A program made the translations under genes and the position numbers. A DNA stretch of 64,000 nt. Origin: Candidatus Omnitrophota bacterium. GTDB lineage: Bacteria; Omnitrophota; Gorgyraeia; Aquiviventales; Aquiviventaceae. Below the pieces are notes generated by a model. That model saw nothing but the letters and a program-made list of their open reading frames with translations, did not search any database and had not been told where the DNA came from. The stretch lies in NCBI GenBank assembly GCA_016198905.1, contig JACQHR010000013.1, positions 70,153-134,152 of the forward strand, read 5' to 3'. Below are positions 10,803 through 32,378 of this stretch, in pieces (positions within the stretch are counted from its first letter, which is position 1; each line of letters opens with the position of its first letter).

Positions 10803-10805
10803 GCG

Positions 10806-11414
10806 TTACTGGGACTGCTGAGGCTCCAGCACGTGGACTTGCAGCCGCTTGGTCGATCCGAGCGTCGAAGTGCCGTTGCGCATCACGTAGCCGCGATTGC
10901 CGGAGGCGAGTCGCTCTTGGTCCACTTCCTTCCGCTGCTGGATGTAGGCGCGCCAGGACGCGAGACGCTGCTGCCACATCTTGTGCTTGACGTTGCGAAT
11001 GGCGAGCTTGAGTTCTTTGAGGTTACTCAGCTTCGATTCCAGCTGCTGTTTTTCCGTCGTCACCGACTCGAGCTGAGCGGACATGGAGGCATTGTGTTGA
11101 CGCAGCTGCTCATGCTCGCGCTGCAGGGTCGAGAGCTGGACCGCGGTGTCATCAAGGCGGCCCTGGAGTGTCTTGAGCTCCTGTTCCAGACTTGAGATGT
11201 TGCCCGCCTGCCCTTCCACTGTTTCCTTGGCGCTGGAAAGCTCCGTATTGAGGCGGGCGCGCTCCTCTTCCAGCTGCTGGACCTCAGCTTGAGCGTGCTT
11301 GTACGCCTCATTAATACGACGCTTCTGCTGCTCAACCGACACCGTGCGCCACAAGCTCGCCCCGAAGAGAGCGATCAGCACGACCACGATCCACCGACTT
11401 CGACGTATTGCCAT
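10806..11414 (-). CDS. membrane-anchored coiled-coil protein, hypothetical
   Basis: 202 aa. One N-terminal TM helix, then a heptad-rich Q/E/L region. Confidence 0.5.
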   Translation of the reverse strand: MAIRRSRWIVVVLIALFGASLWRTVSVEQQKRRINEAYKHAQAEVQQLEEERARLNTELSSAKETVEGQAGNISSLEQELKTLQGRLDDTAVQLSTLQREHEQLRQHNASMSAQLESVTTEKQQLESKLSNLKELKLAIRNVKHKMWQQRLASWRAYIQQRKEVDQERLASGNRGYVMRNGTSTLGSTKRLQVHVLEPQQSQ

Positions 11415-15964: not shown

Positions 15965-18282
15965 GTAATACCCTCCCTGAGCAACACGCGTTTCAACAGC
16001 TGGATCAATGCCGGCAAGTAGATAACGCTCATAACCGAGGAGAGGATCATGACCGCCGCCATCAGAATCCCAACGGTGATATAGGGGGTCAGGTCCGCAA
16101 AGCCCATGACGGCAAACCCCAGCGCAAATAGGATGGCGTTCAGGAAGATGCCCTTGCCAGGCCGCATGACCGTCCACACGAGCGCAGCCTTCAGGTCAGG
16201 CTGCTCCCGATACCGTTGTTGGAAGCGGCCGACAAAGTGGATCGCGAAATCAATGGCCATGCCAAGGGAGAGCGTGGATAACACGGCAACCGGCATGTCG
16301 AAATCCTTGCCGACTAACCCGACGACCCCGTAGATAAGCGCGATCGTGAACAACAGCGGCAGGAAACTCACCAGCCCCCAGAGAAAGGACCGGGTCTCGA
16401 TGACCAACAGGATCAAGACGAGCACCAATCCCCAGAGAAAGCTTTGGAGCATCCCCCACAGCACCTCGTGGTTCCAGACCATGTTGAAGTCGGCGATGCC
16501 GGCAGGCTTCACGATGGCTCCATCAGGGAGGGGGTGCCGAACCAAATACGCCTTCGTGCGAGCCATCACTTGCTCCATGACCCCAGCATCCCAGCTTTTC
16601 AGCTGGAGGATGATGTTCGCCTGTTGGAGCGAGAAATCGACGACGTTATCAAGGTGGCGGGGCTTGGCGGCCGACTGCAAGAGGAACAGGTATTGGCCGG
16701 CTTCGCGGGCTGACTCCGGGATGCGCTCAAAGGCCGCGTTGTCATCGTGCAACACCCGATTGACCCGCTTGATATAGTCAGCGACGGAGATGGTCTTACC
16801 AACCAAGGGATCATGTTCCAGTTCCCGTTGGAGGCCCTCGATCTGGCGCAGCATCGCCGGCTCTCCCATCGCCCCATCTGTTTGCGCCTGGATGACCAGA
16901 TAGGCGGTGGACGTCCCACCCAGGCGCTCATTCAGTACCCGGTCAGCCGTCCTCACCACGCTGTGGAACTTGAACCAGTGCACCATGTTGTTGTTGACAT
17001 GAATGCGCGCCAAGCCGATCACGGCCATGACGAACAATCCAAGGCCTGCTAAGAGAATCCACTTCGTCCTGCGCACGCAGAACTCGCCCAGGCGCGACAG
17101 CCACTGAAACGACGCACTGCTCGTTGCTGTCTGTGGTCGTGCCATCTTCGCGATGCGTTTGTTCGACATTAGCATGAGGATGGCCGGCACCAGGGTGTAG
17201 CTCATGAGCAGAATGACTACGGTACCGAAGCCAATGACGAGGCCGAAGATCTTGACTGGAATAATGGCTCCGGTGGCCAGCGCGGCGAAGCCCACCGCCG
17301 TCGTGACATCGGAGTAGAACACCGGCGGCCCCACGACAGCCATCGTCTCCAAGACCGCCCGGCGTTTGTCGTGGACCTCGCGCATTCGGAAGGCGAATTC
17401 GTTGAAGATATGGACGGCGTCGGTGGCAATCGCCATTAGAAAGACCGGACTCATGGAGCTCATGATGTGCACGGGATACCCTAACCCAATCAAGCCGCCC
17501 AAGCTCCAGATGATGCTAATCATCGCCACACTCATGTTCGCCAGAATCACCGTCCCGCTTCGGAACATCAGCCAGAGGGCTATGCACATCACCAGCCCGG
17601 CAATCGGCGAAAAGAGCGCCATCTGCCGGAACATCTCTGCGCCAAAGGTGTCGCGGGCCACCGGATCGCCGGCGAGGTAGAACTGATCACCGCCGGGCTC
17701 CTTCGGAAGCAGGGCGCGGATCTTGTCCGCCACCGCCTTGCCATTCGCGGTGGGCTCAATGGGGATAAAGATCGCCGTGGCGGTCGCGTCAGCCGAAATC
17801 AGGCGGTTCACCAAGAGGGGGTTGCCAAGCAAGGACTCCCGAAGCTGGAGCAGCGCTCGTTCAGCTTGCGGAATGTCGCCGACGGCGGGTTTGACGACGA
17901 GCTCGCCATCCCCTGCCGTCACGTTGTCCACGCTCGTCAGGCTGTCCACATCACGCGAGATGACGCCGGGAATCCGCTGAATGGCTGGGGTCAGCACCGC
18001 GATTGTCTTAAGCGTGTGCGGATTGATCACACCCTCGGGATGGACGATGCCCAGCGCAACGACATCCGGATGCAGGGCAAACTCCCGCTCGACCTGGTCG
18101 TTGTACTGCCGGACAGGCGAGGTGGCCGGCAGCATGTGCTTGGGATCGGTATCCACGGTGATCTTCGGAAACTGCGCTCCAAAGAGCAGCGTGATCGCAA
18201 CGGTCAGGCCAACGATCAGCCGAGGATGGTCAGCAGAAAAAGCTGAAAGCAGACGGAGCCACCGCATCTCACCACCAGCCAA
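15961..18282 (-). CDS. MMPL/RND superfamily exporter
   Basis: 773 aa. Two 6-TM bundles, each preceded by a large periplasmic loop. Typical HpnN/MmpL-like architecture. Confidence 0.85.
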   Translation of the reverse strand: MAGGEMRWLRLLSAFSADHPRLIVGLTVAITLLFGAQFPKITVDTDPKHMLPATSPVRQYNDQVEREFALHPDVVALGIVHPEGVINPHTLKTIAVLTPAIQRIPGVISRDVDSLTSVDNVTAGDGELVVKPAVGDIPQAERALLQLRESLLGNPLLVNRLISADATATAIFIPIEPTANGKAVADKIRALLPKEPGGDQFYLAGDPVARDTFGAEMFRQMALFSPIAGLVMCIALWLMFRSGTVILANMSVAMISIIWSLGGLIGLGYPVHIMSSMSPVFLMAIATDAVHIFNEFAFRMREVHDKRRAVLETMAVVGPPVFYSDVTTAVGFAALATGAIIPVKIFGLVIGFGTVVILLMSYTLVPAILMLMSNKRIAKMARPQTATSSASFQWLSRLGEFCVRRTKWILLAGLGLFVMAVIGLARIHVNNNMVHWFKFHSVVRTADRVLNERLGGTSTAYLVIQAQTDGAMGEPAMLRQIEGLQRELEHDPLVGKTISVADYIKRVNRVLHDDNAAFERIPESAREAGQYLFLLQSAAKPRHLDNVVDFSLQQANIILQLKSWDAGVMEQVMARTKAYLVRHPLPDGAIVKPAGIADFNMVWNHEVLWGMLQSFLWGLVLVLILLVIETRSFLWGLVSFLPLLFTIALIYGVVGLVGKDFDMPVAVLSTLSLGMAIDFAIHFVGRFQQRYREQPDLKAALVWTVMRPGKGIFLNAILFALGFAVMGFADLTPYITVGILMAAVMILSSVMSVIYLPALIQLLKRVLLREGIT

Positions 18283-18841
18283 GCCTGAGGGGCTTCGTAA
18301 ATGCGCGGGTGCTGAACAGACCAGCCAGGGCCAGGATCAGGAGATTTGCAAGTAGAGGAAACCGACTGAAGACCTGTAATCCCAACAGAACTGTGGCGAT
18401 CATCAGAAACAGACACGTGGCTGCCAGCCGCTTGCGCAAGAGCCGAAGCGGCTTGATCTGGGCCGCAATCTCCTGCGGCACAGGATCATTCTTCACCTGG
18501 CTGAACAACTTCTCGATCCTTGGCTGGATACGTAAGTGGACGACGGACAGCAACGCCATGAGCACGAACAGCAGGAGGAGCTTCAAAACGAGGACTGGAT
18601 TCCAATTCCACCCCAGCCTCCACACAAGCCCCAGGCCTGTCAGCAGCGCGGTGAGCTGGAAGACATAGCAGCGGAGGGCGTTTTTCCCAATCATGGTCTC
18701 CATGTAGCGATCGACCTGATAGACCATCTGCGGGCTGAAGAGGGCTCGCTCGTTCACGATGATGAGCGAATAGAGCGGCGCGGCCATGAAGACGACGGTC
18801 AGGACATGCAGGAATTTCAGGACGGCGTAGACGCTCTCCAT
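18269..18841 (-). CDS. hypothetical 5-TM membrane protein
   Basis: 190 aa, hydrophobic. Overlaps the MMPL start by 14 nt and follows the ArsR gene with a 2-nt gap. Confidence 0.5.
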   Translation of the reverse strand: MESVYAVLKFLHVLTVVFMAAPLYSLIIVNERALFSPQMVYQVDRYMETMIGKNALRCYVFQLTALLTGLGLVWRLGWNWNPVLVLKLLLLFVLMALLSVVHLRIQPRIEKLFSQVKNDPVPQEIAAQIKPLRLLRKRLAATCLFLMIATVLLGLQVFSRFPLLANLLILALAGLFSTRAFTKPLRLGWW

Positions 18842-18843
18842 GG

Positions 18844-19182
18844 CTACTTCCTCCTCCCGGCTTGTTCAATCAGCCGTCCGCCTTCCGCCAACTGCTCCAG
18901 CAAGACTTCCCGCAGAATGTCACAGGCTTTCAGCATCTTGGGGTTGGCGCACCGATAGTAGATGTTGAGTCCCTCGCGCCGCGTCGCCACGATGCCACGC
19001 TGGCGGAGCACGGCTAAGTGTTGGGAGAGGTTCGCCTTGCGGAGCTTCAGGGTCTTGGCCAGCACCTGGACGGATTGCTCCCCCTGCTGCAGGGCGTTGA
19101 GCACCTTCAGCCGCGTGGGGTTCGCCATGGCCTTACAGACTTCCGCATGGAGGGTAAACAGCCGGTCTTCAATTGAACTCAT
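18844..19182 (-). CDS. ArsR/SmtB family transcriptional regulator
   Basis: 112 aa. ANPTRLKVLNAL...SVQVLAKTLKLRKANLSQHLAVLRQRGIV winged HTH. Confidence 0.85.
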   Translation of the reverse strand: MSSIEDRLFTLHAEVCKAMANPTRLKVLNALQQGEQSVQVLAKTLKLRKANLSQHLAVLRQRGIVATRREGLNIYYRCANPKMLKACDILREVLLEQLAEGGRLIEQAGRRK

Positions 19183-19207
19183 CCAACCTCCCTAATGTTG
19201 AGTAGTT

Positions 19208-19227
19208 TCGTATATTCGAATGTATTA
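19208..19227. promoter_or_regulatory. candidate ArsR operator (imperfect palindrome around ATTCGAAT)
   Basis: tcgtatattcgaatgtatta lies 26 nt upstream of the ArsR start, in an AT-rich promoter patch. It shares TATATTCG with the site at 35987. Confidence 0.35.
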
Positions 19228-19299
19228 AATCAAAAGGCGGGACCGCTGTCAATGGCTTTCCTGGCCAGCGGGGCTTAATTAACGCGACTCAAGAAGACG

Positions 19300-19610
19300 T
19301 TACAGCAGGACGTGATATCCCCATTCCCTGAGCAATGCTCTCGTCTTCTCAAGGTTTCGGTCTGTCGGTTTCACACCCCTGAGTTCCCAGTTAATAATCG
19401 TGTCGGGACTTACTCCAACGAGCTCTGCAAGCTCCTTAATCATGAGCCGCCGATCCATGCGGGCCTTGCGGATACGCTCGCCGAGGGTCTTGGGATGCTT
19501 CGGATATTTGGGATCAAGTCCAACGAGATTGATGTGGAGTCAAGAGTGTAGACCAAAGGATTCGGCATCACTTCGCCATCTCCGATGACCCGTTGCTTAT
19601 CTCCAAGCAT
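19300..19610 (-). pseudogene. XRE-family HTH paralog copy 2, frameshifted
   Basis: The N-terminal part (MLGDKQRVIGDGEVMPNPLVYTLDST) and the HTH part (INLVGLDPKYPKHPKTLGERIRKARMDRRLMIKELAELVGVSPDTIINWELRGVKPTDRNLEKTRALLREWGYHVLL) are in different frames. A TGA lies just upstream in the HTH frame. Confidence 0.55.
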
Positions 19611-21324: not shown

Positions 21325-22098
21325 CTATGGCGCCGAGGTGCCCGCATGGTTCACCAGACCCCGCAACCGTTGCCGGCCCCACGCCAGCAGGAGCCATCCC
21401 ATGCAGATGACCACCGTCACGATGGAGAACCATTTCCCGTAGAGGCCGTCCGGCGAGAAGGGCTCGGTCGCCAGATGAAACGCCTCGCTACCGGGGAAGA
21501 CGCCCGCTTCGCTCAATTCGTGAAGGGCATAGATGAAAACCTGGCCTAAGAACAAAAGCAGGAAGATGCTCGTGACCTGAAAGAACAGCTTCAGGTTGAT
21601 CAGGTGGCTGCACCGCACCCATAGCATCGCCAGGAGAGCCGTACAGAGCAGGCCCAGCCCGGCGCCTGTCAGGAAGGCGGGATCGCGCACCTGAAGGAGC
21701 ATCAGGGCGGTCTCGATCCCCTCGCGGGTGATCATCAAGACGGTAAAGAGGAATACTCCCGCGATGGCCCAGCGGGTTGAGGGCCGGGACGAGAGTGTGT
21801 GGAGTTTTTGTTCCGTCTCCTGCTTGAGATACCGTCCGTACCGCCACATCTGCATCACCAGCATGGACACGAAGCCCACGGCGATCAGGCCGAGGAGGCC
21901 TTCCCAGAGCGGATCATAGCCCCGTTGGGACAGGCCCGCTCCCAAGCCGGCGCTGGCCGCCAGCGACACCCCGATGCCCCAATAGACCGCGGGCAACAGT
22001 TGACGACGGTTGATCTTCAGGAGGTAGGCCACGATGATCGAGACGATCAGAAACGCCTCGAATCCTTCCCGTAATACGATCACGAAGGCTTGGAACAT
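21325..22098 (-). CDS. FTR1 family high-affinity iron permease
   Basis: Start at MFQAFVIVLREGFEAFL with a GAGAGGAG RBS. Two REXXE motifs (REGFE, REGIE). About 7 TM helices. Confidence 0.85.
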   Translation of the reverse strand: MFQAFVIVLREGFEAFLIVSIIVAYLLKINRRQLLPAVYWGIGVSLAASAGLGAGLSQRGYDPLWEGLLGLIAVGFVSMLVMQMWRYGRYLKQETEQKLHTLSSRPSTRWAIAGVFLFTVLMITREGIETALMLLQVRDPAFLTGAGLGLLCTALLAMLWVRCSHLINLKLFFQVTSIFLLLFLGQVFIYALHELSEAGVFPGSEAFHLATEPFSPDGLYGKWFSIVTVVICMGWLLLAWGRQRLRGLVNHAGTSAP

Positions 22099-22254
22099 TT
22101 GGTGCTCCTCTCGTTGAATGGACCTGCGATGCAGATGCGCAATAGCACACTCAATGCGGATAGGTTGGGACTGGCTTGCGGAACTGTCGTGGGTTGGGAA
22201 GGTATACAAGCCGCCCGCAACGCGGAAGATTGCAGATTGGCGGGATGGTGTGTC

Positions 22255-22530
22255 TTAGTGCGTAGGAAGCACGACACCGGAGGCATGACCATTATGCTCG
22301 ATGAATGGTCGCTTGCCTCCAGCGGTCTGGTCGGCGAACGAGGGGTGATTGGTGCGGCCGCCTGAGAGCAGGTGGGCCTTGTGGTCCAATCGAATCTTCT
22401 GGGTGGCTTCAATCTGCACGACCCGCGCATCGTGGATGGTGATCTGGACGGAGCCGAATCGGACTCCCTCAATCGCTTCCGCGATCTGCAGCAGGGTTGC
22501 TTCAGACACGACGCTCGGTTGCGCTCTCAT
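22255..22530 (-). CDS. YezD/DUF2292-like small protein
   Basis: GSVQITIHDARVVQIEATQKIRLD core. Start placed 2 nt after the fur stop. Confidence 0.55.
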   Translation of the reverse strand: MRAQPSVVSEATLLQIAEAIEGVRFGSVQITIHDARVVQIEATQKIRLDHKAHLLSGGRTNHPSFADQTAGGKRPFIEHNGHASGVVLPTH

Positions 22531-22532
22531 CG

Positions 22533-23012
22533 TTACGCCACGATCTCTTCGACGTGCAGCTCCGGTTCTTTGCGGATCGGCGTGCCGTGCTGCTTCTGGC
22601 AGCTCCCGCACAGTCCATAGAGCTTATGGGTGTGCGACAACAGGGTGTACCCGTAACGCTTCGCCGCTTGTTCTTGCATGGGTTCCCACCGCGGCTCTTG
22701 GAATTCGATGATTTCTCCACAGCGCATGCACATCAGATGATCGTGATGGGCCTTGCCGTAGGTGACTTCATAGTAGGGCGGCCCGTAGCGGAAATCGTGC
22801 TTCTCGACCAGACCGGCATCCTGCAGGAGCGTCAGGGTGCGAAACACCGTCATCCGCGACACCGAAGCGTCAATGCGTCGAACATCTTTGACGAGCTCCT
22901 CGGCGGAAAAGTGCAAATGGTTCACCGCCCGACGGAGGATGAGCTGCCGCTCCGACGTGAGCCGGATGCCTTTCTCCTTTAATACTTGGGTGACTGAAAT
23001 GAGCCTGTTCAT
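22533..23012 (-). CDS. fur: Fur family transcriptional repressor
   Basis: 159 aa. RMTVFRTLTLLQDAGLV HTH, HHDHLMCMRCG and CGSC metal sites. Confidence 0.9.
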   Translation of the reverse strand: MNRLISVTQVLKEKGIRLTSERQLILRRAVNHLHFSAEELVKDVRRIDASVSRMTVFRTLTLLQDAGLVEKHDFRYGPPYYEVTYGKAHHDHLMCMRCGEIIEFQEPRWEPMQEQAAKRYGYTLLSHTHKLYGLCGSCQKQHGTPIRKEPELHVEEIVA

Positions 23013-23036
23013 TTTACTTGATACTCAGTAACAGGT

Positions 23037-23064
23037 ATTCTATAATCATTTGGTCTATTGTCAA
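23037..23064 (-). promoter_or_regulatory. candidate fur promoter (TTGACA-16-TAGAAT) overlapping a Fur-box-like AATGATTATAGAAT
   Basis: Minus-strand read: cTTGACAatagaccaaatgattaTAGAATacc. The half-site ATAATCATT matches the Fur-box core. Confidence 0.4.
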
Positions 23065-23094
23065 GCAAAAATGCGTGTCGGGAAACACACGCCG

Positions 23095-23123
23095 TTGACA
23101 TGAGCAGAATGGCTGCCTATAGT
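23095..23123 (+). promoter_or_regulatory. candidate sigma-70 promoter for the ferritin-like gene
   Basis: TTGACA, a 17-nt spacer, then TATAGT. Confidence 0.45.
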
Positions 23124-23175
23124 GAGTCCCTGCACCGGCTATGTCGCACGAGTTTCAAACAAAGAGGGGGAACCA

Positions 23176-23595
23176 ATGGTGCCGGACGTGAAGAAACTCT
23201 TGGTGCTGCTCAATGAAGGTTTGGAGATGGAATACGCGAGCCAAATCCAGTACCTGACTCAGGCGGCGATCACCAAAGGACCGTATGCAGAAGGATTAAT
23301 CGCCAGGTTCAAAGAAATCGCAGGTGACGAAGCGGAGCACGCCGACATCCTCCGCCAGCGAATCGTCGCGTTAGGTGGAACGCCGACGACGAAGGTCGGC
23401 GACATCCAGATTCACCCCGATTCTCTGAAAGCCGTCCAGATCAACCTGAAATACGAAAAGGACACTGTAGAGTTCTACCGCAAGATTCTCAATCTCATTT
23501 CCTCTGATCACCCCATCCTCTACGAAGCAATCGAGCATATCCTTGAGGACAGCGAAGAACACGTCGAAGAGTTGGAGCGGCTGGTAGGCAAGTGA
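23176..23595 (+). CDS. ferritin-like domain protein (bacterioferritin/Dps-like four-helix bundle)
   Basis: Start at MVPDVKK behind AAAGAGGGGG. EMEYASQIQY, GDEAEHADIL and EDSEEHVEEL di-iron-type ExxH motifs. Confidence 0.7.
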   Translation: MVPDVKKLLVLLNEGLEMEYASQIQYLTQAAITKGPYAEGLIARFKEIAGDEAEHADILRQRIVALGGTPTTKVGDIQIHPDSLKAVQINLKYEKDTVEFYRKILNLISSDHPILYEAIEHILEDSEEHVEELERLVGK

Positions 23596-23847
23596 CCGGG
23601 GTTTCTCAGAGAAACCCCAAAACCTCCCTGACCTTCCCAAGCCTCCCCCGCTTGGTTGCAGACCTCGCACTTCCCAGTTAATTACGGTATCTTCGCTCAC
23701 ACCGACGAGCGCGGCAAGCTCCTTAATCATGAGCCGCCGATCCATGCGTGCCTTGCGGATATGCTCGCCAAGCGTATGAGGCTCTTTTGGATACGCAGGA
23801 TCAAGTTCGACGAGATTAAGGTTTAGTTCGAGGAATCGTTGAAGCAT
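23371..23847 (-). CDS. XRE-family HTH paralog copy 3
   Basis: LDPAYPKEPHTLGEHIRKARMDRRLMIKELAALVGVSEDTVINWEVR. About 50 nt are near-identical to copy 2. The called 3-prime 225 nt run antisense through the hairpin and the ferritin-like gene and are probably not real. Confidence 0.5.
   Translation of the reverse strand: MLQRFLELNLNLVELDPAYPKEPHTLGEHIRKARMDRRLMIKELAALVGVSEDTVINWEVRGLQPSGGGLGRSGRFWGFSEKPRSLAYQPLQLFDVFFAVLKDMLDCFVEDGVIRGNEIENLAVELYSVLFVFQVDLDGFQRIGVNLDVADLRRRRST
23598..23618. terminator. perfect 9-bp hairpin 3 nt after the ferritin-like stop
   Basis: ggggtttct-cag-agaaacccc. No clear U tract on either strand. Confidence 0.45.
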
Positions 23848-24193
23848 GCCGATTAGGCGCGGCGATTTGTTCTAGGTGGACTTGAATCCAGTCAAAGGTT
23901 CAGAGCGAGCAGGTAGGCGTCCGGTCGTAGTCATCCAGAACGACGTCGGCAACGACGCTGCGCCCACCGTCATTGTGGCGCCGCTCACCACGAAGAGCTT
24001 CACGAAGCCCTACCCGATCAACGTCCATGTTCCCCGCGGTGTGGCCGGACTGAAAGAAAACTCCGCCGTCTTGCTTTCTCAAATCCGCACCATTGACAAG
24101 ATCCGCCTGGATCGCAAAATCGGCCACCTACCGCCCTCCCACCTCAAACAGACTGACCAGGCCATCTGCATCAGCCTCGGCCTCACGTTGTGA
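23846..24193 (+). pseudogene. mazF: MazF/PemK-family toxin interrupted by an amber codon at codon 10
   Basis: ATG at 23846 reads [35 protein letters not shown].... TAG at 23873 sits where family members have Trp (TGG). The ORF track restarts at GTG 23876. Confidence 0.65.
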
Positions 24194-24206: not shown

Positions 24207-24252
24207 CAAAAATGAAAAGGCCCCGCCGCAGGACAGAACCTGCGTGGGAGCC
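24207..24252 (-). terminator. intrinsic terminator closing the Ehr operon
   Basis: Minus-strand read: GGCTCCCACGCAGG-ttctgt-CCTGCGGCGGGGCC followed by TTTTCATTTTT. Confidence 0.65.
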
Positions 24253-24340: not shown

Positions 24341-25108
24341 CTATCGCGTTCCGTTCTCAATCCGACCAAGTAGACGCAGCATCCCATCAAGGATCGTCAG
24401 CGGATGCGGCGGGCAGCCGGGGATGTAGAGATCAACCGGCAGGAACTGTTCCGCCCCGTTATACACCTCTGGACCGTCTCGGAACGGGCCCCCGCTGATC
24501 GCACAGGCTCCGACCGCGATGACCAGCTTCGGAGATGGAACGGCCTCATAGGTTTTGAGCAGCGCCGTGCGCATGTTCTCCGTCACAGGCCCGGTCACGA
24601 TGAGTCCGTCTGCATGGCGCGGAGAAGCAACGAATTGAATGCCGAAGCGGCCCAGGTCAAAGACAACGTTGTTCAGCGCCTGCAGCTCCATCTCGCAGCC
24701 GTTGCAACTGCCGGCGCAGACCTCGCGCAACTTCAGCGAACGGCCAAAGAGCCTGCGCGTTTTTTCTTCGAGCGCCAAAACCTTGGGGATTTCATCACTC
24801 CGCAGAATGAGACTCTTGCGTGTTGTCGCAGCCAGCCTGAAGTCAGCCGTATACGTGATGGCCTGCTCGGGACAAGCCATGACGCATTCCTGGCAGAACA
24901 GGCAGCGCCCGAGATCAAGCTGCACTGTTCCATTCGCCTGAATCGCCTGAGTCGGACACGCCTCAGCGCATTGTTGACAGTTGGCCGGGCATTGCTTGCT
25001 GTCAATGGTCGGACGACCGCGAAAGCGCTCCGGGAGTTTCGCCTCTGCACCAGGAAACGCGAGCGTCCGACACCCTTGCTCAATTCGCGTAGCAATGATG
25101 TTCAGCAT
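24341..25108 (-). CDS. ehrS: Ehr small subunit: 2x[4Fe-4S] ferredoxin fused to NuoB/HycG-like domain
   Basis: CPANCQQCAEACP and CLFCQECVMACP, then CAGSCNGCEME, GACAISGG and PGCPPHP. Confidence 0.8.
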   Translation of the reverse strand: MLNIIATRIEQGCRTLAFPGAEAKLPERFRGRPTIDSKQCPANCQQCAEACPTQAIQANGTVQLDLGRCLFCQECVMACPEQAITYTADFRLAATTRKSLILRSDEIPKVLALEEKTRRLFGRSLKLREVCAGSCNGCEMELQALNNVVFDLGRFGIQFVASPRHADGLIVTGPVTENMRTALLKTYEAVPSPKLVIAVGACAISGGPFRDGPEVYNGAEQFLPVDLYIPGCPPHPLTILDGMLRLLGRIENGTR

Positions 25109-25119
25109 CGACAGGCTCC

Positions 25120-26640
25120 TTACAAATCGTGCCCGGCATACGAGAGGTTGAAGCTCTTATTGCACAACGGAAAATCCGAGATCTCACCATTCCGCAAAGC
25201 CATCGCCAGTCCCATCCAATTGTGAAATGAAGGGTCGACGATCTTGTATCGGGCGATGCCGCCCTTCGCATCCGTCATCACGACGTGCACAATTTCCCCG
25301 CGCCATCCTTCCACCATGGAGAACGCAACGCTGTCCGCCTTCATCTGCGGACACGGCACGCGCAACTCGCCTTCCGGCAGGCTGGTCAGTTGCTCCAGCA
25401 GGAATTCCAACGACCGCTCTGCCTCAAGCCAGCGGATGAGCGCCCGCGCATGCACGTCTCCGGTGTCAGCCGTCATCATGGGAAGATGGGCAAACTGATA
25501 GATGCCTGAGGGATGGTCATGCCGGATGTCACGATGGCTTCCGCATGCCCTAGCTGCCGGTCCAACAAGCCCAAGTTCCTCGCTCACTTGTTCCGTGAGC
25601 ATGCCAGTACCTTCAAACCGATCAATGACGGATGGCGTGTCAAAGAGCATGCGTGCAAATGTCCGTAACTCCTTCTGAGCCCGCTTCATCCTCTTCTCGA
25701 AATCTACCAGCAACACTCCACTGAGGTCATGCAGCACGCCACCGGCACGCAGAAAGCTTCGACCATAGCGGCTGCCGGTCAGCTCCATGAGCAGGTTGAG
25801 ACATTCGCCGCGTAGGCGCCCGAAATAGGCGGCGGCGGGTAAGAATCCCACGTCGGTGCCCAATGCTCCCAGATCGCCAACATGATTCGCCAGCCGCTCA
25901 AGCTCAAGCGCGATACCGCGTAAGGCCTGCGCTCTGGGACTGATCTGGCAGCCGCCAAGCGATTCCATGACTTCGCAGAAGGCGAGGGCATGACCGATGA
26001 CCGTATCACCGGCAATCGATTCAGCCAGGACAGACATCCGCTGTGAGAGACCGCCTGCAAGCATCCGCTCAATGCCGCGATGCTGATAGCCCAGCTGAAT
26101 CTCAAGATGCAGCACCCGCTCGCCATGACACTGGAAGCGGAAGTGGCCCGGCTCGATGATGCCGGCGTGCACCGGACCCACAGCGACCTCATGAATTTCG
26201 CTGCCCTTCACATGGAAGAAGGGGTAGCTGCCGGGGATCGGAGATGCGGCATCCTGTCCGGGCCATAGATCCGACGCGCCACGGTAGTTGCGATGATGCC
26301 TGAGAGGCTTCAACCATGGATGCCCTGCCGGCTTGATGGCAAACTGCTCAGCCAGCTCCCGCTCAAACCAATGCGCCTGGGGGCACTCAGGCGTGAGGGA
26401 TGGATACGAATCCTGTACCATCGTCCCAATCGCTGCACATTCCCCCGTCTCGTCGTGGGCCAGCAGAGCGTACACTTTCACCTGTTTCCCGTTGATCAGT
26501 CGGCCAAAGAACGCTGACAGGCGCGCACCCTCTTTTACCGCGAGAAGCACTGCGTCGCGGAATGCCGGTATCGGCAGCACCGGAACGGCTGCCTCATCAA
26601 CAGCCTGAGGATTCTTGAGGGACAGAGGCGCTGGGATCAC
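25120..26640 (-). CDS. ehrL: Ehr large subunit: NuoC + NuoD/HycE-like fusion lacking NiFe ligands
   Basis: VGPVHAGIIEPGHFRF and GPAARACGSHRDIR hallmarks. No CxxC anywhere. C-terminus is DFPLCNKSFNLSYAGHDL. Confidence 0.8.
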   Translation of the reverse strand: MIPAPLSLKNPQAVDEAAVPVLPIPAFRDAVLLAVKEGARLSAFFGRLINGKQVKVYALLAHDETGECAAIGTMVQDSYPSLTPECPQAHWFERELAEQFAIKPAGHPWLKPLRHHRNYRGASDLWPGQDAASPIPGSYPFFHVKGSEIHEVAVGPVHAGIIEPGHFRFQCHGERVLHLEIQLGYQHRGIERMLAGGLSQRMSVLAESIAGDTVIGHALAFCEVMESLGGCQISPRAQALRGIALELERLANHVGDLGALGTDVGFLPAAAYFGRLRGECLNLLMELTGSRYGRSFLRAGGVLHDLSGVLLVDFEKRMKRAQKELRTFARMLFDTPSVIDRFEGTGMLTEQVSEELGLVGPAARACGSHRDIRHDHPSGIYQFAHLPMMTADTGDVHARALIRWLEAERSLEFLLEQLTSLPEGELRVPCPQMKADSVAFSMVEGWRGEIVHVVMTDAKGGIARYKIVDPSFHNWMGLAMALRNGEISDFPLCNKSFNLSYAGHDL

Positions 26641-28085
26641 GGGGTTCCTCCGACAAGCTGTGCCGCGTGAGTGAGCGCTTCTTTCAAGCCTGGCGGCACG
26701 TAGAGACCGAGCACGAGCACCGCGATCAGCAACACCAGGGGCACGCCCACCAACAACCCGGATTCTCCTCTTACATGTGAGCTCCCGGTCACCCCAGCCA
26801 CAGGCTGCCCCTGAGCCATTGGCAGGACAATAGCCCCCATGCCAAGAAACACGACGGCAAGCAGTGCCAGATATATGGTAGCCACAACGGGGTGACCTTG
26901 GCTGACGGCGGCGTTCAGGATCGTGAATTCGCTCAGGAATAAACCGAAGGGAGGAGCGCCGGTGATCGCGAAGAATCCTCCGAGCAGCAGCGCCCCAGAC
27001 ACCGGCAGGCGGCGCAGAACGCCTCTCACTTCAGTGGCGATTTTCGTCCCATGAGCGAGGAGGATATTGCCGGCCACGAAGAATAGCAGCGCCTTAGTCA
27101 GCGAGTGATTCACTGCATGTAGCATGGCGCCATAGGCTCCTGCCCCTCCGAGGCCAACTCCCAGCGACAGCATCCCCATGTGCTCAACACTGGAGTACGC
27201 CAGCATGCGCTTGTAGTCGGATTGGCCGACGATAAACACCGCGGCGACAAAGAGCGATAACAGGCCAAACACCACAAGCAGTTCCTGGACAAACGAGGCG
27301 AGCCCTGCCGCCAGACACACCTGAAAGAGACGCAGGATGCCGAGAAACGCGCAGTTGAGCAACGCGCCTGATAACAGGGCCGATGCCGGCGACGGCGCTT
27401 CGCTGTGGGCATCCGGCAACCAGGTATGAAACGGTGCTAACCCCATCTTCGTGCCATAGCCGACCAGAAAGAAGAGGAAGCCTCCTTTCAGCCACGGGAG
27501 GTGCAGCCGGCCGGCATGGCTGATCAGCTCACTGACCAACAGGGAGAGCTGGTCTGCTCCATGATCTGAGCCTGCCAGCGCGACGAAAAACGTCCCTAAC
27601 AGCGCCAGAGCAATCCCGACGGAGCAGATGAGCAAGTACTTCCACGTGGCCTCAAGCGATCGTTGACTGTGATGAAAATAGATCAGCGGCGCGCTGGCCA
27701 GCGTGGTGCCCTCGATTGCCACCCACAGCAGCCCCAGATGCTGGCTCACGGTCACAAGGCTCATGGCTGCGAGGAACCCAAGCAAACAGCCCACGAACGT
27801 ACGATTGGAGCGGCGCGGTTCATGTTGCAGATACCCAACCGCATAGAGGGCCGCACACACGAACAGCACGCTGACCAGCGTCAAGAAGATACGGCCGAGC
27901 GCATCGACTGCGAGCCAACCGCCCAGGAGAGAGGCCGGCTGCTGATACCAGCACGAGATGACGAGCGCAAGATGAAAGACAGCGATTCCGATGAGCAGCG
28001 CCAGGCGGAGCCTGTTTGAACGCAACAAAAAAGCCACGCCTGCGCCAACCAGCGGAACAAGGACCACTCCAAGCAACATGGTCAA
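26637..28085 (-). CDS. ehrD: NuoN/M/HyfF-like proton-conducting antiporter subunit
   Basis: 482 aa, about 14 TM. WLPDAHSEAPSPASALLSG motif of the Mrp/NuoLMN family. Confidence 0.8.
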   Translation of the reverse strand: MTMLLGVVLVPLVGAGVAFLLRSNRLRLALLIGIAVFHLALVISCWYQQPASLLGGWLAVDALGRIFLTLVSVLFVCAALYAVGYLQHEPRRSNRTFVGCLLGFLAAMSLVTVSQHLGLLWVAIEGTTLASAPLIYFHHSQRSLEATWKYLLICSVGIALALLGTFFVALAGSDHGADQLSLLVSELISHAGRLHLPWLKGGFLFFLVGYGTKMGLAPFHTWLPDAHSEAPSPASALLSGALLNCAFLGILRLFQVCLAAGLASFVQELLVVFGLLSLFVAAVFIVGQSDYKRMLAYSSVEHMGMLSLGVGLGGAGAYGAMLHAVNHSLTKALLFFVAGNILLAHGTKIATEVRGVLRRLPVSGALLLGGFFAITGAPPFGLFLSEFTILNAAVSQGHPVVATIYLALLAVVFLGMGAIVLPMAQGQPVAGVTGSSHVRGESGLLVGVPLVLLIAVLVLGLYVPPGLKEALTHAAQLVGGTP

Positions 28086-28726
28086 CCCTTCAGCGTCGTG
28101 AGGTGATACGTATCAATATGATCGAATTCCCGGCTGATGTGATAGATGACGATCCCCATGATGAAGACGCCGGCGAACAGATCCAGCAGAACGCCCAGCT
28201 CCACCAGTAAGGGCATGCTCTGGACGAGGGTCAACCCAAATAGGAAAATGCCGTTCTCGAGCATCAGATACCCGAGCACCTGCGTCAGCGCTTTGGTGCG
28301 GGACACCAACACCACGAGGCTGATGAGCAGTGTGGTCATGGCTGCTGGCACCAGGAGCGATGAAGTCATGGACGGCAGGGACGGCAGCCGAGAGGACAGC
28401 ACGAACGCCACAACGGTGGCAACGGCTCCCACGAGCAGGGACGCCGTGAATCCGATGAGCGGCTCGATCTCAGCACGCATGGAACCGTCGCGCAACGTGC
28501 GCAGCAGCAGCCAGGGAAACAAGACTCCTTTGAGCGCCAGCATGCCCGCCGATAACGCAACCATATGGACCGCCAGGTCGCCCTGATGCAGCAGGAGCGG
28601 CAGGATGCTCAGTAAGACGCCTTGAAAGGCCACCGCCCGGATGCAAGCTCTGAGCCGGCTGCTGCCCAGGACAAGGAAATTCAACAGCATGGCCAGCACC
28701 AGAATCAGGTCAATGCCCTGCGCCAT
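28082..28726 (-). CDS. ehrC: HyfE/NuoK-like membrane subunit
   Basis: 214 aa, about 7 TM. 4-nt overlap with the next gene. Position equivalent to hyfE. Confidence 0.7.
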   Translation of the reverse strand: MAQGIDLILVLAMLLNFLVLGSSRLRACIRAVAFQGVLLSILPLLLHQGDLAVHMVALSAGMLALKGVLFPWLLLRTLRDGSMRAEIEPLIGFTASLLVGAVATVVAFVLSSRLPSLPSMTSSLLVPAAMTTLLISLVVLVSRTKALTQVLGYLMLENGIFLFGLTLVQSMPLLVELGVLLDLFAGVFIMGIVIYHISREFDHIDTYHLTTLKG

Positions 28727-28732
28727 AGCCGC

Positions 28733-29647
28733 CTACCTCCACACCAGCAACAGGCCGACAGCGGCCAGCACACCTGAGGTGACCAGCAGTTGCGGCACGC
28801 GGATCAAGCGAAGCCGCGCCATCGACGACTCCACGATACCGATGAGCACTGCCAGCCCCAACAGCCCGGCGACGACTATGACGAGATCCAGCCAGACTAC
28901 ACCGATGTGCACGGGCACGAGCAGCCGGACGAGCAGCACGCTGAACAGAAACAGCTTCAGCGCACTGCCGTAGAGGATGAATGCAAAATCAGGACCGCTG
29001 TGGTCGAGCACCATCACTTCATGGATCATCGTCAACTCAAGATGGGTCGTGGGATCGTCAACGGGCATGCGGGCGTTTTCCGCCAGCAGCACGAGAAAGA
29101 AACTGGCGGCTGCCAGCGCAAGCGCCGGACCGGCCGTGCGCCAGGCCTGCCCTAAGACCGGGCCGAACATTTCGGACAGTTGCACGCTGCCGGTCACTTT
29201 GGCGATTACGGCAAGCGCGACAAACAACGCCGGCTCCGCCAGGCTGGCAAACGTGACTTCGCGGCTAGCACCCATCCCTTCAAAGCTCGACCCGGTATCA
29301 AGCGCTGCGAGCACGGTGATGAAGCGGGCAACGCCGATGAGATAGGCCCAGAGCACCACGTCCCCCCAGAACGAGAGGAGCGCTGAAGGCGTTGTAAGTG
29401 GAACAAAGAGGGCTGCGGTTAGGAATGCTGCCGGCGAAACCAGCGGCCCGGCTCGGAACACCCATGACGTGGTCCGGCTGTAAACCGCACCTTTCTGCAG
29501 CAGCTTCCATAGGTCGTAGTACGGCTGCAGCACCGGGGCGCCAACGCGTCCTGTGAGGATTGCTTTTGTCTTGTGAATCACGCCTAACAGCAGCGGCGGA
29601 CAGACGAGCGCCAGGCCTAAGGACAACAGTAGTGGGATGACCGACAT
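28733..29647 (-). CDS. ehrB: NuoH/HycD/HyfC-like membrane subunit
   Basis: ORF 28733..29806. Start placed at MSVIPLLLSLG, 4 nt after the upstream stop. PYYDLWKLLQKG and EGMGASREV motifs. Confidence 0.75.
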   Translation of the reverse strand: MSVIPLLLSLGLALVCPPLLLGVIHKTKAILTGRVGAPVLQPYYDLWKLLQKGAVYSRTTSWVFRAGPLVSPAAFLTAALFVPLTTPSALLSFWGDVVLWAYLIGVARFITVLAALDTGSSFEGMGASREVTFASLAEPALFVALAVIAKVTGSVQLSEMFGPVLGQAWRTAGPALALAAASFFLVLLAENARMPVDDPTTHLELTMIHEVMVLDHSGPDFAFILYGSALKLFLFSVLLVRLLVPVHIGVVWLDLVIVVAGLLGLAVLIGIVESSMARLRLIRVPQLLVTSGVLAAVGLLLVWR

Positions 29648-29651
29648 TACC

Positions 29652-31643
29652 TCAGACCCCGAGTTTCCATACCAGCAGCACCACGAGCGTGATAAAAATG
29701 TAGAGCAGATACAACTGAACCCGGCCCTGCTGCAGCCACCGCAGACCCTCCAGGCCGCGCCGGACCTTGGCGAACAATGGCAGGAACAGGTAGGCGGTCG
29801 CCACATCAGGCGTGTGAGATGTCAGGCGTGCCGACGCGGGAAAATAGCCGGCAGGGGCCTGCTCATGGGACTGTGTTCGCAACACGCTTTGAAACAGCCT
29901 CACGAGTGGTTGCGCAAAGGATGCGGCAGTGTACTGCATGCTGGCTGCCGGAGCCGTGTAGCCACAGTCCCATGTGACCGTCTGGCTGATTGGTCGGTTC
30001 GATAGAGAGAGCCGCCGCAACACGACGAGTGCCAGCGTGATGCAGAGAAACAGTGCGGCTGTCGCGCTGACCATCATCAGGCCGGCCAACGCTGAAGCCA
30101 TTCCCTCGATGTTCAGTGACGGCGTTTCGTTGTAGATACCGCTGATCGCTGGCATCATGAATTGCACGACTCGATGAGGCCATAACCCAATCGCCAGACA
30201 GCTTCCCACAAGCACCATCATGGGGATCAGCATGGCCGGACCAGCTTCGTGAAGCGGATGAGCGCGTGATTCCCGAGGGCTCCCAAGAAACACCGTGCCG
30301 AAGGCTTTGGCAAAGCACGCCGCCGCCAAGCCGCCGATCAACGCCAGTGCTGCAATTCCCAGTCCGAGCCACATCCCGCTGCGTGTCGTGAACTCCAGAA
30401 AACCACGAAACCCGCCCACGTAGATCAGCCACTCGCTGACAAAACCATTGAATGGAGGCAGACCGCAGATGGCCATGGCTCCGACGAGAAATGTGAACGC
30501 CGTCCACGGCATCGTCTTGAGCAACCCGCCGAGCCGGTCCAGCTCCCGTGTACCCGTCGCATGGAGCACAGAGCCTGCCCCGAGGAACAGCAGCGCCTTG
30601 AACAGGCTGTGGTTGAGCACATGCAGGAGCGCTCCGCCAAATCCAAGCCAGCTCATCACCGGCTGCCCCTTGGAGTGGCCAAGCAGCCCGATGCCTAACC
30701 CTAAGGCAATGATGCCGATATTCTCGACGCTGTGGTAGGCCAGCAGTCGTTTGAGGTCATGCTGGGAAAGAGCAAACACAACACCTAACACGCCCGAGGT
30801 CATGCCAATCATGAGGAAGGTCTGACCCCACCAAGCCGGCGGCGGGCCCAGGAAAGTCAGCGTCCGCAGGATGCCGTAGATGCCGAGCTTGATCATCACG
30901 CCGGACATCACCGCAGAGACATGACTCGGCGCTGCCGGATGGGCTTCCGGCAGCCACACATGCAGCGGCATAAAGCCGGCCTTGGTACCAAACCCCACGA
31001 GCGCCAGGAGGAACAAGACTGCCGTCAAGACTGATGGCATTGAGCTTATGGCCGAAAACTGATCGAAATTCATGGAACCCGCTTGCCGACCAAGCAGCGT
31101 GAAGAGCACGAAGAGGAAGGCCGTGCCAAGATGCGTAGCCACGAGGTAGGTCCAGCCCGCTTCCCGAACCTCCTCGCGTTCATCCTCGAAGGTGACGAGG
31201 AAGAATGACGCCAGCGACATCACCTCCCAGGCCACGAGAAACAAGACGGCGTTGCGTGCGGCCACCACCAGCGCCATTGAGGCGATGAGGATGTTGAACC
31301 AGCCAAAGATTGGCCCGAGGGATTGACGCTCACCGAACGGCCTAAGATACTCGCTGCTGTACACGGCGGCCAGCGCCGATACGCCGAACACGGGTAGGAG
31401 AAACCAGGCGGTCAGCGGATCAATGGCCAGATAGAATTCGCCGTATGGCACGTCCCAGGCTGACCGGAAGGAGAACCCTGCGCTGCCCATCAGGACCTGG
31501 ATTGCAGGCGCTAAGCCTGCCAAACAGCCAACCAGTGCACCGCTAACGCCCCAGCATGTGGCAAGGCGCGAGTTGCGGCCTGCCAATACGGCCATGCCTC
31601 CACTGACGGTCAACACGCCGAGTGCAAGAAAGAAGGCGATCAT
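29652..31643 (-). CDS. ehrA: NuoL/HyfB-like proton-conducting antiporter subunit
   Basis: 663 aa. WLPEAHPAAPSHVSAVMSGVMIKLG motif. The start overlaps the upstream stop as ATGA. Confidence 0.85.
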   Translation of the reverse strand: MIAFFLALGVLTVSGGMAVLAGRNSRLATCWGVSGALVGCLAGLAPAIQVLMGSAGFSFRSAWDVPYGEFYLAIDPLTAWFLLPVFGVSALAAVYSSEYLRPFGERQSLGPIFGWFNILIASMALVVAARNAVLFLVAWEVMSLASFFLVTFEDEREEVREAGWTYLVATHLGTAFLFVLFTLLGRQAGSMNFDQFSAISSMPSVLTAVLFLLALVGFGTKAGFMPLHVWLPEAHPAAPSHVSAVMSGVMIKLGIYGILRTLTFLGPPPAWWGQTFLMIGMTSGVLGVVFALSQHDLKRLLAYHSVENIGIIALGLGIGLLGHSKGQPVMSWLGFGGALLHVLNHSLFKALLFLGAGSVLHATGTRELDRLGGLLKTMPWTAFTFLVGAMAICGLPPFNGFVSEWLIYVGGFRGFLEFTTRSGMWLGLGIAALALIGGLAAACFAKAFGTVFLGSPRESRAHPLHEAGPAMLIPMMVLVGSCLAIGLWPHRVVQFMMPAISGIYNETPSLNIEGMASALAGLMMVSATAALFLCITLALVVLRRLSLSNRPISQTVTWDCGYTAPAASMQYTAASFAQPLVRLFQSVLRTQSHEQAPAGYFPASARLTSHTPDVATAYLFLPLFAKVRRGLEGLRWLQQGRVQLYLLYIFITLVVLLVWKLGV

Positions 31644-32323
31644 GCCTGCTTGAGTTGATCCTCAACCCGTAAGAAGTGTCCGAGAATACTATCAAAACGT
31701 TCCCGTTGGCGTAATGCCTGGCGCAAACTTGTGTCCTGCAGGACGAACGCCAGCCGTGAGAGTAAGGTGAGGTGCATGCGAACCGTTGGGGTGATGAGCG
31801 TAAACAGTGTAGAAACCGGTTTGCCATCCACCGCATGAAAGTCCACCGGTTGGCGCAGAAATGCCAATGTGACCATCGGCGTAGACACGCGCAACACGAT
31901 GGGGTTGCGGACATGCGGAATCGCAATGCCTTCCCCGACGCCTGTTGAACCCAGCCGTTCACGGGCTAGCAACATCCGCAGGAGAAACGTTCGGTCAGTG
32001 TCCTTCGGCAACGGCAGTCCGGTGACCAGTTCTTTGAGCACGGTACTAATCTGCTTCCCTGGCAGGTCCTCAATGATACCGCCAAGTTCCAGCGCTCGTG
32101 TCAGCACGGGCGCGTGTGACTGAGCGCTTCCATGTCCCATGCGGAACGACTGCGCTGAGAGCCGAACACCTTCTGCCGTGGCCCACTCCAGCAATTGCGC
32201 GTGATTGAAACGGTACTGCTCATTGACTCGATGCGCAGGCAGGCCCTTATCCCGAATCCACTGGTAGAGCACGTCCTGGGAAATGTTCAGCAGTTTGGCA
32301 GCTTCACGAGCCGTGAGTTCCAT
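31640..32323 (-). CDS. HTH (excisionase/MerR-type) + PTS EIIA type-2 (PtsN-like) fusion protein
   Basis: MELTAREAAKLLNISQDVLYQWIRDKGLPAH, then the EIIA fold with GIAIPHVRNP (phospho-His context). Confidence 0.8.
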   Translation of the reverse strand: MELTAREAAKLLNISQDVLYQWIRDKGLPAHRVNEQYRFNHAQLLEWATAEGVRLSAQSFRMGHGSAQSHAPVLTRALELGGIIEDLPGKQISTVLKELVTGLPLPKDTDRTFLLRMLLARERLGSTGVGEGIAIPHVRNPIVLRVSTPMVTLAFLRQPVDFHAVDGKPVSTLFTLITPTVRMHLTLLSRLAFVLQDTSLRQALRQRERFDSILGHFLRVEDQLKQA

Positions 32324-32343: not shown

Positions 32344-32378
32344 ACAAACAGGGAGGTGGCACGACCCTCCCTGTTTGT
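32344..32378 (-). other. perfect 13-bp stem hairpin in the leader of the HTH-EIIA gene
   Basis: acaaacagggagg-(9 nt)-cctccctgtttgt, 20 nt upstream of the ATG at 32323. Confidence 0.5.

Follow-up and report, generated by a model that had tools for sequence, protein, structure and literature searches.

Two types of membrane complexes are described that resemble the group-4 [NiFe] hydrogenases and that have no cysteine ligands for the metal site in their large subunit. The first is Ehr (Ech-hydrogenase-related or energy-converting hydrogenase-related; Coppi 2005 and Marreiros et al. 2013, as cited in later papers), which is encoded by ehrABCDLS and was reported in Geobacter sulfurreducens, in Methylacidiphilum and in about half of the Nitrospirales genomes. 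The second is hyq, named as a Cys-less type beside ehr in a paper on complex I evolution. Here we describe a seven-gene locus of the Ehr/Hyq type from Candidatus Omnitrophota bacterium, located on a DNA stretch of 64,000 nucleotides (GenBank assembly GCA_016198905.1, contig JACQHR010000013.1, positions 70,153 to 134,152 of the forward strand). This whole stretch is called the window, and all positions are counted from its first letter. The evidence supports that the locus is an intact member of the Ehr/Hyq family in an uncultivated bacterium; the closest named relatives of its large subunit are labelled Candidatus Omnitrophica and share 84% identity with it. What is added here to the published descriptions is a PtsN-like seventh gene with a candidate operator, a four-Cys sister clade with the same gene order and the link to the hyq genetics.

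In Azorhizobium caulinodans the hyqRBCEFGI operon has seven genes, and its 504-aa HyqG protein is a NuoC::D fusion without both CxxC motifs (PMC2650096, PMC3357923). The operon is part of the nif regulon and depends on NifA and sigma-54, and a strain that lacks it grows slowly only when the cells are diazotrophic. The deletion strain evolved 10-15x more H2 in diazotrophic culture at 20 uM O2 and 0.4x as much under microaerobiosis. The authors of these two papers introduced the name 'endo-hydrogenase', called a NiFe site 'uncertain, if not unlikely' and reported no cell-free assay. The first-pass annotation of the window had stated that no role is established for the Ehr class. This agrees with papers up to 2025-2026, which still call the Ehr function unknown, but it overlooked the hyqRBCEFGI genetics.

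The six-frame list of open reading frames (ORFs) contains six consecutive, tightly packed ORFs on the minus strand at 24341-31643. Counting the gene with HTH_17 and PTS_EIIA_2 domains at 31640-32323, the operon has seven genes and spans 24341-32323 (-). In the order of transcription, the features are as follows, with the phosphotransferase system abbreviated as PTS, its enzyme IIA as EIIA and helix-turn-helix as HTH:

32344..32378, minus strand: perfect 13-bp inverted repeat ACAAACAGGGAGG-N9-CCTCCCTGTTTGT, which lies 20 nt before the ATG of gene 1
31640..32323, minus strand: gene 1, predicted regulator with HTH_17 and PtsN-like PTS EIIA_2 domains, 227 aa (PF12728, 2.4e-13; PF00359, 3.1e-21)
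29652..31643, minus strand: gene 2, EhrA/HyfB-like antiporter-type membrane subunit, 663 aa (PF00361; NF005086)
28733..29647, minus strand: gene 3, EhrB/HyfC NuoH-like membrane subunit, 304 aa (PF00146, 1.5e-29)
28082..28726, minus strand: gene 4, EhrC/HyfE-like small membrane subunit, 214 aa (NF008556, 5e-22)
26637..28085, minus strand: gene 5, EhrD/HyfF-like antiporter-type membrane subunit, 482 aa (NF005044, 4.6e-115)
25120..26640, minus strand: gene 6, EhrL/HyqG-type large subunit, a NuoC+NuoD/HycE-like fusion, 506 aa (Complex1_30kDa and Complex1_49kDa)
24341..25108, minus strand: gene 7, EhrS small subunit, a ferredoxin and NuoB/HycG fusion, 255 aa (PF01058, 1.9e-32, and Fer4 families)
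24208..24241, minus strand: terminator-like GC-rich hairpin with a 10-pair stem and a T-run (tail TTTCATTTTT), which closes the operon

Pfam and NCBIfam agree on the six structural genes, in which Proton_antipo_M is found twice, together with NADHdh and HyfE. Along the operon the junctions measure -4, +4, +6, -4, -4 and +11 nt, with the start of the NuoH-like gene taken at ATG 29647 (MSVIPLL, 304 aa). This start is the most likely one according to the gene calls of the relatives and the junction, and the start of the longest ORF at 29806 is almost certainly wrong. The six-gene module in hyf/ech order on the minus strand was already recognised in the first-pass annotation, and the ORF list and both model libraries bear it out, as they do the sizes of 663, 482, 506 and 255 aa. 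The junctions match its 4-nt overlaps and gaps of at most 11 nt, and the hairpin and T-run at 24241-24208 match its terminator. Its range up to 32323 covers the six structural genes correctly, but ends at the ATG of a seventh gene that its text did not mention.

The best solved relative of the large subunit is HycE of E. coli (7z0s_E, E-value 3.7e-49 with HMMER). In this alignment the HycE motif RVCGICGFAH lies over SIAGDTVIGH and DPCYSCTDR lies over NLSYAGHDL, and the four NiFe ligand positions are occupied by A210, T213, S500 and G503. The motifs of group-4 [NiFe] hydrogenases, L1 RxCGxCxxxH and L2 [DE][PL]CxxCxx[HR], are thus both absent, and no cysteine is placed in the L1 and L2 columns. 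The number of CxxC motifs in the 506-aa protein is zero, as had been claimed, and the two group-4 hallmarks and the two altered ligand motifs quoted in support of that claim were found at residues 154, 360, 206 and 489. The large subunit fully keeps the beta1-beta2 loop of the hydrogenase type, GPVHAGIIEPGHFRF, with its Glu. The C-terminus coincides with the equivalent of HycE Arg537, which we take to be the HycI cleavage site. As the protein ends there and has no C-terminal extension, there is nothing for such a protease to process.

Among 79 family members, the hallmarks xGD[TS] and SDFPLCNKSFNLSYxGHDL are conserved, with G211, D212, T213 and the last 19 residues invariant or nearly so. Because these replacement motifs are near-invariant in 79 sequences from many phyla, the pocket is likely to be under strong selection. 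A polar set at the former metal site is strictly conserved, namely D212, T/S213, N494, K495, S496, N498, S500, Y501, H504 and D505. Much of the conserved C-terminal motif, DFPLxNKSF, is not newly evolved and is inherited from the four-Cys sister hydrogenases described below. We considered a conserved thiolate metal site and rejected it, since no Cys is kept throughout the Cys-less clade. Position 502 is Cys in 72 of the 79 sequences, Ala in the clade of the window and C, A or S across the wider clade, and C493 is replaced by I or V in some subclades. The AlphaFold2 (AF2) monomer of the large subunit is confident as a whole, with a predicted template modelling score (pTM) of 0.87, and its best fold match is HycE with a template modelling (TM) score of 0.82, followed by E. 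coli NuoCD at about 0.79.

The large subunit belongs to a large family, with more than 8000 close database relatives and 6524 matches at E <= 0.001 in a search of 50%-identity representatives. We built a neighbour-joining tree of about 100 representatives together with E. coli HycE, HyfG and NuoCD and Rhizobium HyqG. The tree is based on distances and is rough, with no support values; it places the window protein far inside one monophyletic Cys-less clade, outside the bona fide hydrogenases and NuoD. The hallmarks of the clade are xGD[TS] in place of CGxC and NKSFNLSYxGxDL in place of ...LCYxCxDR. The assignment to the Ehr class is supported by this membership, by the four cysteines of the proximal cluster and by the ehrABCD gene order, which is kept in the related loci with enough DNA, and the window protein is not found among the NiFe hydrogenases.

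The sister of the Cys-less clade is formed by sequences with all four ligand cysteines (P0215, P0229, P0232, P0237, P0248, P0262, P0264 and P0266), which share 35-39% identity with the window protein. The loci of this hyf-type group-4 clade (P0215, P0229 and P0264; L091-L093) have the same HyfB-HyfC-HyfE-HyfF-large-(ferredoxin)-small order, the beta1-beta2 loop and DFPLxNKSF. They differ by their own RxCGxC and LCYxCxDR motifs, a match to PF00374, a separate ferredoxin gene or none, and a TetR-type regulator. With a four-Cys sister clade and the same gene order, the Cys-less complexes look like derivatives of a hyf-type six-gene hydrogenase. Judged from these comparisons, the Ehr/Hyq-type complex looks like a stripped-down relative of complex I that descended from a hyf-type [NiFe] hydrogenase by loss of the metal site.

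For the neighbourhoods, a genome collection was scanned for the 80 closest related loci, which by the labels of their metagenome-assembled genomes (MAGs) come from Planctomycetota, Verrucomicrobiota, Omnitrophota, Binatia, delta-proteobacteria, Methylomirabilota, Holophagales, Gemmatimonadota, Hydrogenedentota and Brocadiia. Beyond the seven genes nothing recurs in the flanks of these loci; a sigma-54 activator is found in 14 of them at variable distance. The hyp genes do not recur either. Genes resembling hypA, hypF or hycI follow the Cys-less cassette at a distance of up to a few kb downstream in three of the 80 loci, of which two are from Holophagales MAGs (L061 5810-6154, L070 3420-5741 and L032 17349-17765), and these genes may belong to a separate hydrogenase nearby. 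Plasmid 3 of Variovorax sp. PBL-E5 (L082) has two hyf/ehr-type clusters about 3 kb apart (3905-11189 and 14601-19428). One of them is Cys-less with a ferredoxin-NuoB fusion and a large subunit 41% identical to that of the window, and the second begins with an annotated hyfB.

The small subunit would provide the path for electrons. Its N-terminus is a 2x[4Fe-4S] ferredoxin-like domain of the HycF/NuoI type, and the HycF and HyfH models match residues 1-104. Of the two CxxCxxCxxxCP motifs that had been reported for this protein, the second one is present as such and the first one is Cx3Cx2Cx3CP. The eight ferredoxin cysteines are kept in 71-78 of 78 small-subunit sequences. All four cysteines expected for the proximal cluster were identified (C135, C138, C202 and C232), and each of them is invariant in the 78 sequences. 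When the flanking ORFs of the 80 related loci were clustered, no partner dehydrogenase, such as a formate dehydrogenase, a carbon monoxide dehydrogenase or NuoEFG, was linked to the cassette in any of them, which leaves the fused ferredoxin domain as the only visible electron port.

The membrane subunits keep the residues of the ion path. The 663-aa HyfB-like protein scores 633.6 bits with the 'hydrogenase 4 subunit B' model (NF005086), below the cutoff of 667. Its residues E140, K221, K252, H341, H345, K349 and E404 align with the key residues of E. coli HyfB and NuoL, and E125, K213, H323, H327, K331 and E386 of the HyfF-like protein follow the pattern of E. coli HyfF. Both antiporter-like subunits therefore have the Glu of transmembrane helix (TM) 5, the Lys of TM7, the central Lys and His and the Glu of TM12, as in E. 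coli HyfB/HyfF and at the key positions of NuoL/M/N. Many acidic residues of the NuoH-like subunit are invariant in 31 orthologues, and K66, E86, R143, E157, E176 and D182 of the HyfE-like subunit are invariant in 61 orthologues.

Comparing the locus with the described systems, the Ehr complexes of Geobacter, Methylacidiphilum and Nitrospirales have the same set of NuoL-, NuoH-, HyfE- and NuoN/M-like subunits, a Cys-less large subunit and a small subunit with the proximal cluster. The subfamily of the window has in addition a conserved gene for an HTH and PtsN-like EIIA protein translationally coupled in front, a feature that the literature searched does not describe for Ehr. An orthologous hyq operon is carried by pRL11 of Rhizobium johnstonii 3841 (L081). 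Its HyqG protein is 35% identical to the window protein, falls into the same Cys-less clade, contains ...RTSGDSTVAY... and ends in ...DFPLCNKSFNCSYSGHDL. The hyq operons share with the window the regulator-B-C-E-F-G-I order, the 4-nt overlaps, a NuoC::D fusion of about 504 aa and hallmarks in the form of TSGDS and DFPLCNKSFNCSYSGHDL. They differ in three respects. Rhizobial HyqR, an HTH protein of 98 aa, shares no detectable similarity with the regulator of the window (E 0.18), rhizobial HyqI is a NuoB-only protein of 177 aa in which the ferredoxin domain is absent, and the Azorhizobium operon is under NifA and sigma-54 control. Upstream of the window operon no -24/-12 match to a sigma-54 promoter was found, and the counts of such matches across the window equal the chance expectation. 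The E. coli formate hydrogenlyase and hydrogenase-4 (HycE and HyfG; 7z0s) are the best solved relatives, and the membrane subunits of the window match the models of HyfB, C, E and F. The NiFe ligands, the HycI-cleaved extension, the HycB and FdhF partners and the hyp genes of these E. coli systems all have no counterpart in the window.

Our tentative preference, held with less than even confidence, is that the Ehr complex of the window is a ferredoxin- or flavodoxin-linked and most likely quinone-coupled reversible ion-translocating oxidoreductase. This model builds on the subunit inventory, the loss of the NiFe ligands, the retention of the Fe-S and ion-path residues and the conservation of the cassette with its regulator; the electron donor, the quinone partner, the operating direction and the regulatory logic would be as follows. 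A low-potential one-electron carrier such as ferredoxin or flavodoxin would dock on the 2x[4Fe-4S] domain of the small subunit, from where the electrons would pass to the proximal N2-type cluster. In the remodelled pocket, which lies between the large, small and NuoH-like subunits, a membrane quinone or a similar acceptor would take up these electrons or give them back. The movement of H+ or Na+ through the HyfB-, HyfF-, HyfE- and NuoH-like subunits would be reversibly coupled to this exchange. In the forward direction energy would be conserved from reduced ferredoxin, and in the backward direction the membrane potential would drive the making of reduced ferredoxin. The HTH and PtsN-like EIIA protein most likely controls the operon by its His phosphorylation state.

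We count it in favour of a quinone as the partner that the hosts named in the records are largely from lineages known to respire with quinones, namely Verrucomicrobiota, Planctomycetota, Binatia, Myxococcota, Gemmatimonadota, Rhizobium, Burkholderia, Rhodococcus and Allomeiothermus. The membership of hyq in the nif regulon and its growth defect only under diazotrophy would fit a supply of low-potential electrons at least as well as a recycling of H2.

The Q-module of complex I (NDH-1) is like the window complex in its architecture, in having no NiFe site, in the antiporter-like ion paths and, in E. coli, in the NuoC-NuoD fusion. The window complex has no NuoA or NuoEFG, and the ferredoxin-like domain that is joined to its small subunit does not reach the length of NuoI. 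Several observations weigh against the quinone-coupled model. Residues 23-125 of Thermus Nqo4 align without gaps to the large subunit, and the quinone ligands His38 and Tyr87 are replaced by I162 and G211, respectively, of which G211 is invariant and I162 is invariant in an alignment of 36 sequences. With both the NiFe cysteines and the Nqo4 quinone ligands gone, the pocket fits neither a hydrogenase nor the canonical quinone site of complex I. The proximal cluster has the hydrogenase-type CxxC and not the CC of NuoB. Not every member of the Cys-less clade has the ferredoxin port, as the rhizobial HyqI has no such domain. Reading the pocket off the AF2 monomer was rejected, because the predicted local distance difference test score (pLDDT) is below 50 at exactly that site, namely at residues 155-165 (the beta1-beta2 loop) and 493-506 (the C-terminus). 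In Riflemargulisbacteria, which have an Ehr of another clade, the authors found no full quinone biosynthesis pathway, and the literature searched yielded no study that characterises any Ehr by biochemistry or structure. The quinone partner is the weakest link of the model, given the missing canonical ligands and the presence of a different Ehr clade in genomes for which no full quinone pathway was reported.

A ferredoxin-driven ion pump could instead reduce a non-quinone acceptor at the remodelled pocket, for example a soluble or unusual small molecule, and the sulfane reductase MBS/Mbx of Pyrococcus would be a precedent. The absence of both Nqo4 quinone ligands, the new and strictly conserved polar set lining the former metal site, and the occurrence of some other Ehr clades in genomes that yielded no full quinone pathway are all compatible with such an acceptor. 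We consider this explanation unlikely, since the neighbourhood offers no candidate substrate, with nothing conserved beyond the seven genes, and much of the C-terminal motif, as DFPLxNKSF, is shared by inheritance with the four-Cys sister hydrogenases. Moreover, MbsL is only a distant match to the large subunit (6u8y_L, 5.9e-23).

It is also improbable that the complex serves mainly ion or pH homeostasis, as a redox-gated or redox-sensing Mrp-like cation/proton transporter with an Fe-S switch and PtsN-type control. K+ transport in E. coli and Rhizobium is under the control of PtsN proteins. Together with this link, the intact ion-path residues and the conserved regulator with its PtsN-like EIIA domain would suit such a device, and the Methylacidiphilum genome paper lists ehr among the candidate pH-homeostasis systems. 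However, twelve Fe-S ligands and a full peripheral arm would be costly if they served sensing alone, all relatives among the hydrogenases and complex I are driven by redox reactions, and the PtsN-like gene is missing from the distant Ehr loci.

That the complex 'cannot be a hydrogenase', as the first-pass annotation put it, is very likely with all four ligand cysteines gone, but it is contested in print for the Azorhizobium hyq. The 'endo-hydrogenase' proposed there would be a true hydrogenase whose active site is non-canonical; on the cytoplasmic side it would consume or produce H2, and it would exchange electrons with quinone. The retained beta1-beta2 loop with its Glu, the hyp- or hycI-like genes near three of the 80 loci and the changed H2 evolution of the hyq deletion strain (PMC2650096, PMC3357923) speak for it. 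Against these stand the replacement of all four ligand cysteines, the lack of any Cys common to the whole clade, with I or V at 493 and C, A or S at 502, and the reservations of the Hyq authors themselves about the NiFe site, without a cell-free assay. The H2 phenotypes could come indirectly from the electron flux to nitrogenase, and the expression of Ehr in Nitrospira moscoviensis was not increased by H2. In addition, tblastn with the E. coli queries HypA-F, HycI and HycH gave no match in the window, and a Pfam survey of the other ORFs found housekeeping genes only, in agreement with the earlier claim that hyp and maturation protease genes are absent. We therefore regard a working hydrogenase as very unlikely.

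A drifting, non-functional hydrogenase relic is suggested for Geobacter Ehr in a 2026 paper, which reads missense mutations of ehrA-2 and ehrB in long-term electrode cultures as relaxed selection. For the window complex this is hardly credible and is contradicted by the conservation. Hardly any variation between phyla is seen in the replacement motifs, the Fe-S ligands and the ion-path residues, the genes are tightly coupled with intact reading frames, and the homologues number in the thousands. In Geobacter cultures on formate, moreover, every Ehr subunit was found among the abundant proteins. Taken together, this indicates strong purifying selection on the complex.

The gene in front of the six structural genes has a stop that shares 4 nt with the start of the HyfB-like gene. 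Of the 60 related loci that extend far enough, 59 have it directly upstream on the same strand. A reverse look-up from the best homologues of the protein reaches the same cassette. The EIIA active-site residue His150 (GIAIPH) and His197 are invariant in 59 of 59 orthologues, and the closest solved chains to the EIIA domain are all PtsN (4gqx, 1.5e-16). With the PtsN model TIGR01419 the protein reaches 70 bits, which falls short of the cutoff of 138.7, and we thus call it PtsN-like and not an equivalog. The more distant Ehr loci, with 45%, 41% and 35% identity, have no PtsN-like gene, so the gene marks a subfamily. No mention of an association between PtsN and Ehr was found in the literature searched. 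The HTH and PtsN-like EIIA protein is presumed to be the regulator of the operon. In six loci, among them L047 (3254-4024, minus strand), a second paralogous HTH and EIIA-like gene is found near the cassette on the opposite strand, in five of the six upstream of it, which suggests that some lineages have paired HTH-EIIA regulators.

Upstream of the regulator start, a tandem direct repeat TGTC[CT]-N5-TGTC[CT], often ATGTCCAAAGATGTCCAAAG, is present in 23 of 58 related loci from several phyla. The mean in shuffled sequences is 0.015 loci, and the opposite strand has the repeat in one locus. It lies about 25-75 nt upstream of the HTH-EIIA start (L005-L072), and at -49 in most of the loci (e.g. 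L016, L041, L046 and L060). TTGACA, on either strand, is enriched in the same region (32 of 58 loci). It is plausible that the repeat is an operator and that a promoter overlaps it. The TGTC[CT] tandem repeat is not found in the window, where a different sequence, the 13-bp palindrome at 32344-32378, is present instead. Its left arm includes GGGAGG, and a close relative (L086) preserves the palindrome by compensatory changes in the arms. The palindrome is a candidate for an operator or a 5' hairpin. An upstream RNA element was considered and rejected, with no Rfam match and an unexceptional hairpin energy (z -1.18).

Taking the regulator and the complex together, the HTH-EIIA protein could be the dedicated phosphorylation-controlled switch of a widespread seven-gene Ehr subfamily, acting through the TGTC[CT] repeat as its operator, and the complex a membrane-potential-driven quinol:ferredoxin oxidoreductase that supplies low-potential electrons, for example to 2-oxoacid synthases or nitrogenase, in quinone-respiring bacteria. 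This more specific proposal is rather doubtful as a whole.

The surroundings of the operon in the window contain further genes. Directly downstream of the terminator, a MazF/PemK-type toxin gene is located at 23876-24193 on the plus strand (PF02452, 1e-28). It is adjoined by a 158-aa ORF (23371-23847, minus strand), which has no Pfam match at E <= 1e-5, and no cognate antitoxin was identified. An iron-homeostasis cluster with an FTR1-family iron permease, a Fur-family regulator and a ferritin-like protein lies just downstream (21325-23595). In other loci, neither these iron genes nor the MazF/PemK gene with its neighbouring ORF are conserved beside the cassette. Farther away, the window encodes a class II (B12-dependent) ribonucleotide reductase at 55215-58067 (-), and at 48970-50259 (-) a radical S-adenosylmethionine (SAM) protein that resembles lysine-2,3-aminomutase. 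Such proteins are common in anaerobes or facultative anaerobes, and they give a weak hint of an anaerobic or facultative lifestyle of the host.

The Ehr/Hyq family occurs in thousands of genomes, whose lineages are from soil, freshwater and engineered systems and include Nitrospira, Geobacter, methanotrophic Verrucomicrobia, rhizobia, Planctomycetes and Binatia, and it is placed on the evolutionary path that links membrane hydrogenases and complex I. Around 20 years have passed without a demonstrated Ehr substrate, a question that this locus alone leaves standing. The comparison provides handles on it, namely the conserved pocket xGD[TS]...NKSFNLSYxGHDL, the four-Cys sister clade, in which the state before the loss can be compared at the same gene order, and the PtsN-like regulator with its candidate operator, which could show when the complex is used. 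If the HTH-EIIA protein were the switch and the complex a quinol:ferredoxin oxidoreductase, the 20-year question would be settled, and the 'endo-hydrogenase' phenotypes of hyq would be explained by an altered electron flux to nitrogenase. A complex that reduces ferredoxin at the expense of the membrane potential would fill a gap in the supply of low-potential electrons in aerobes.

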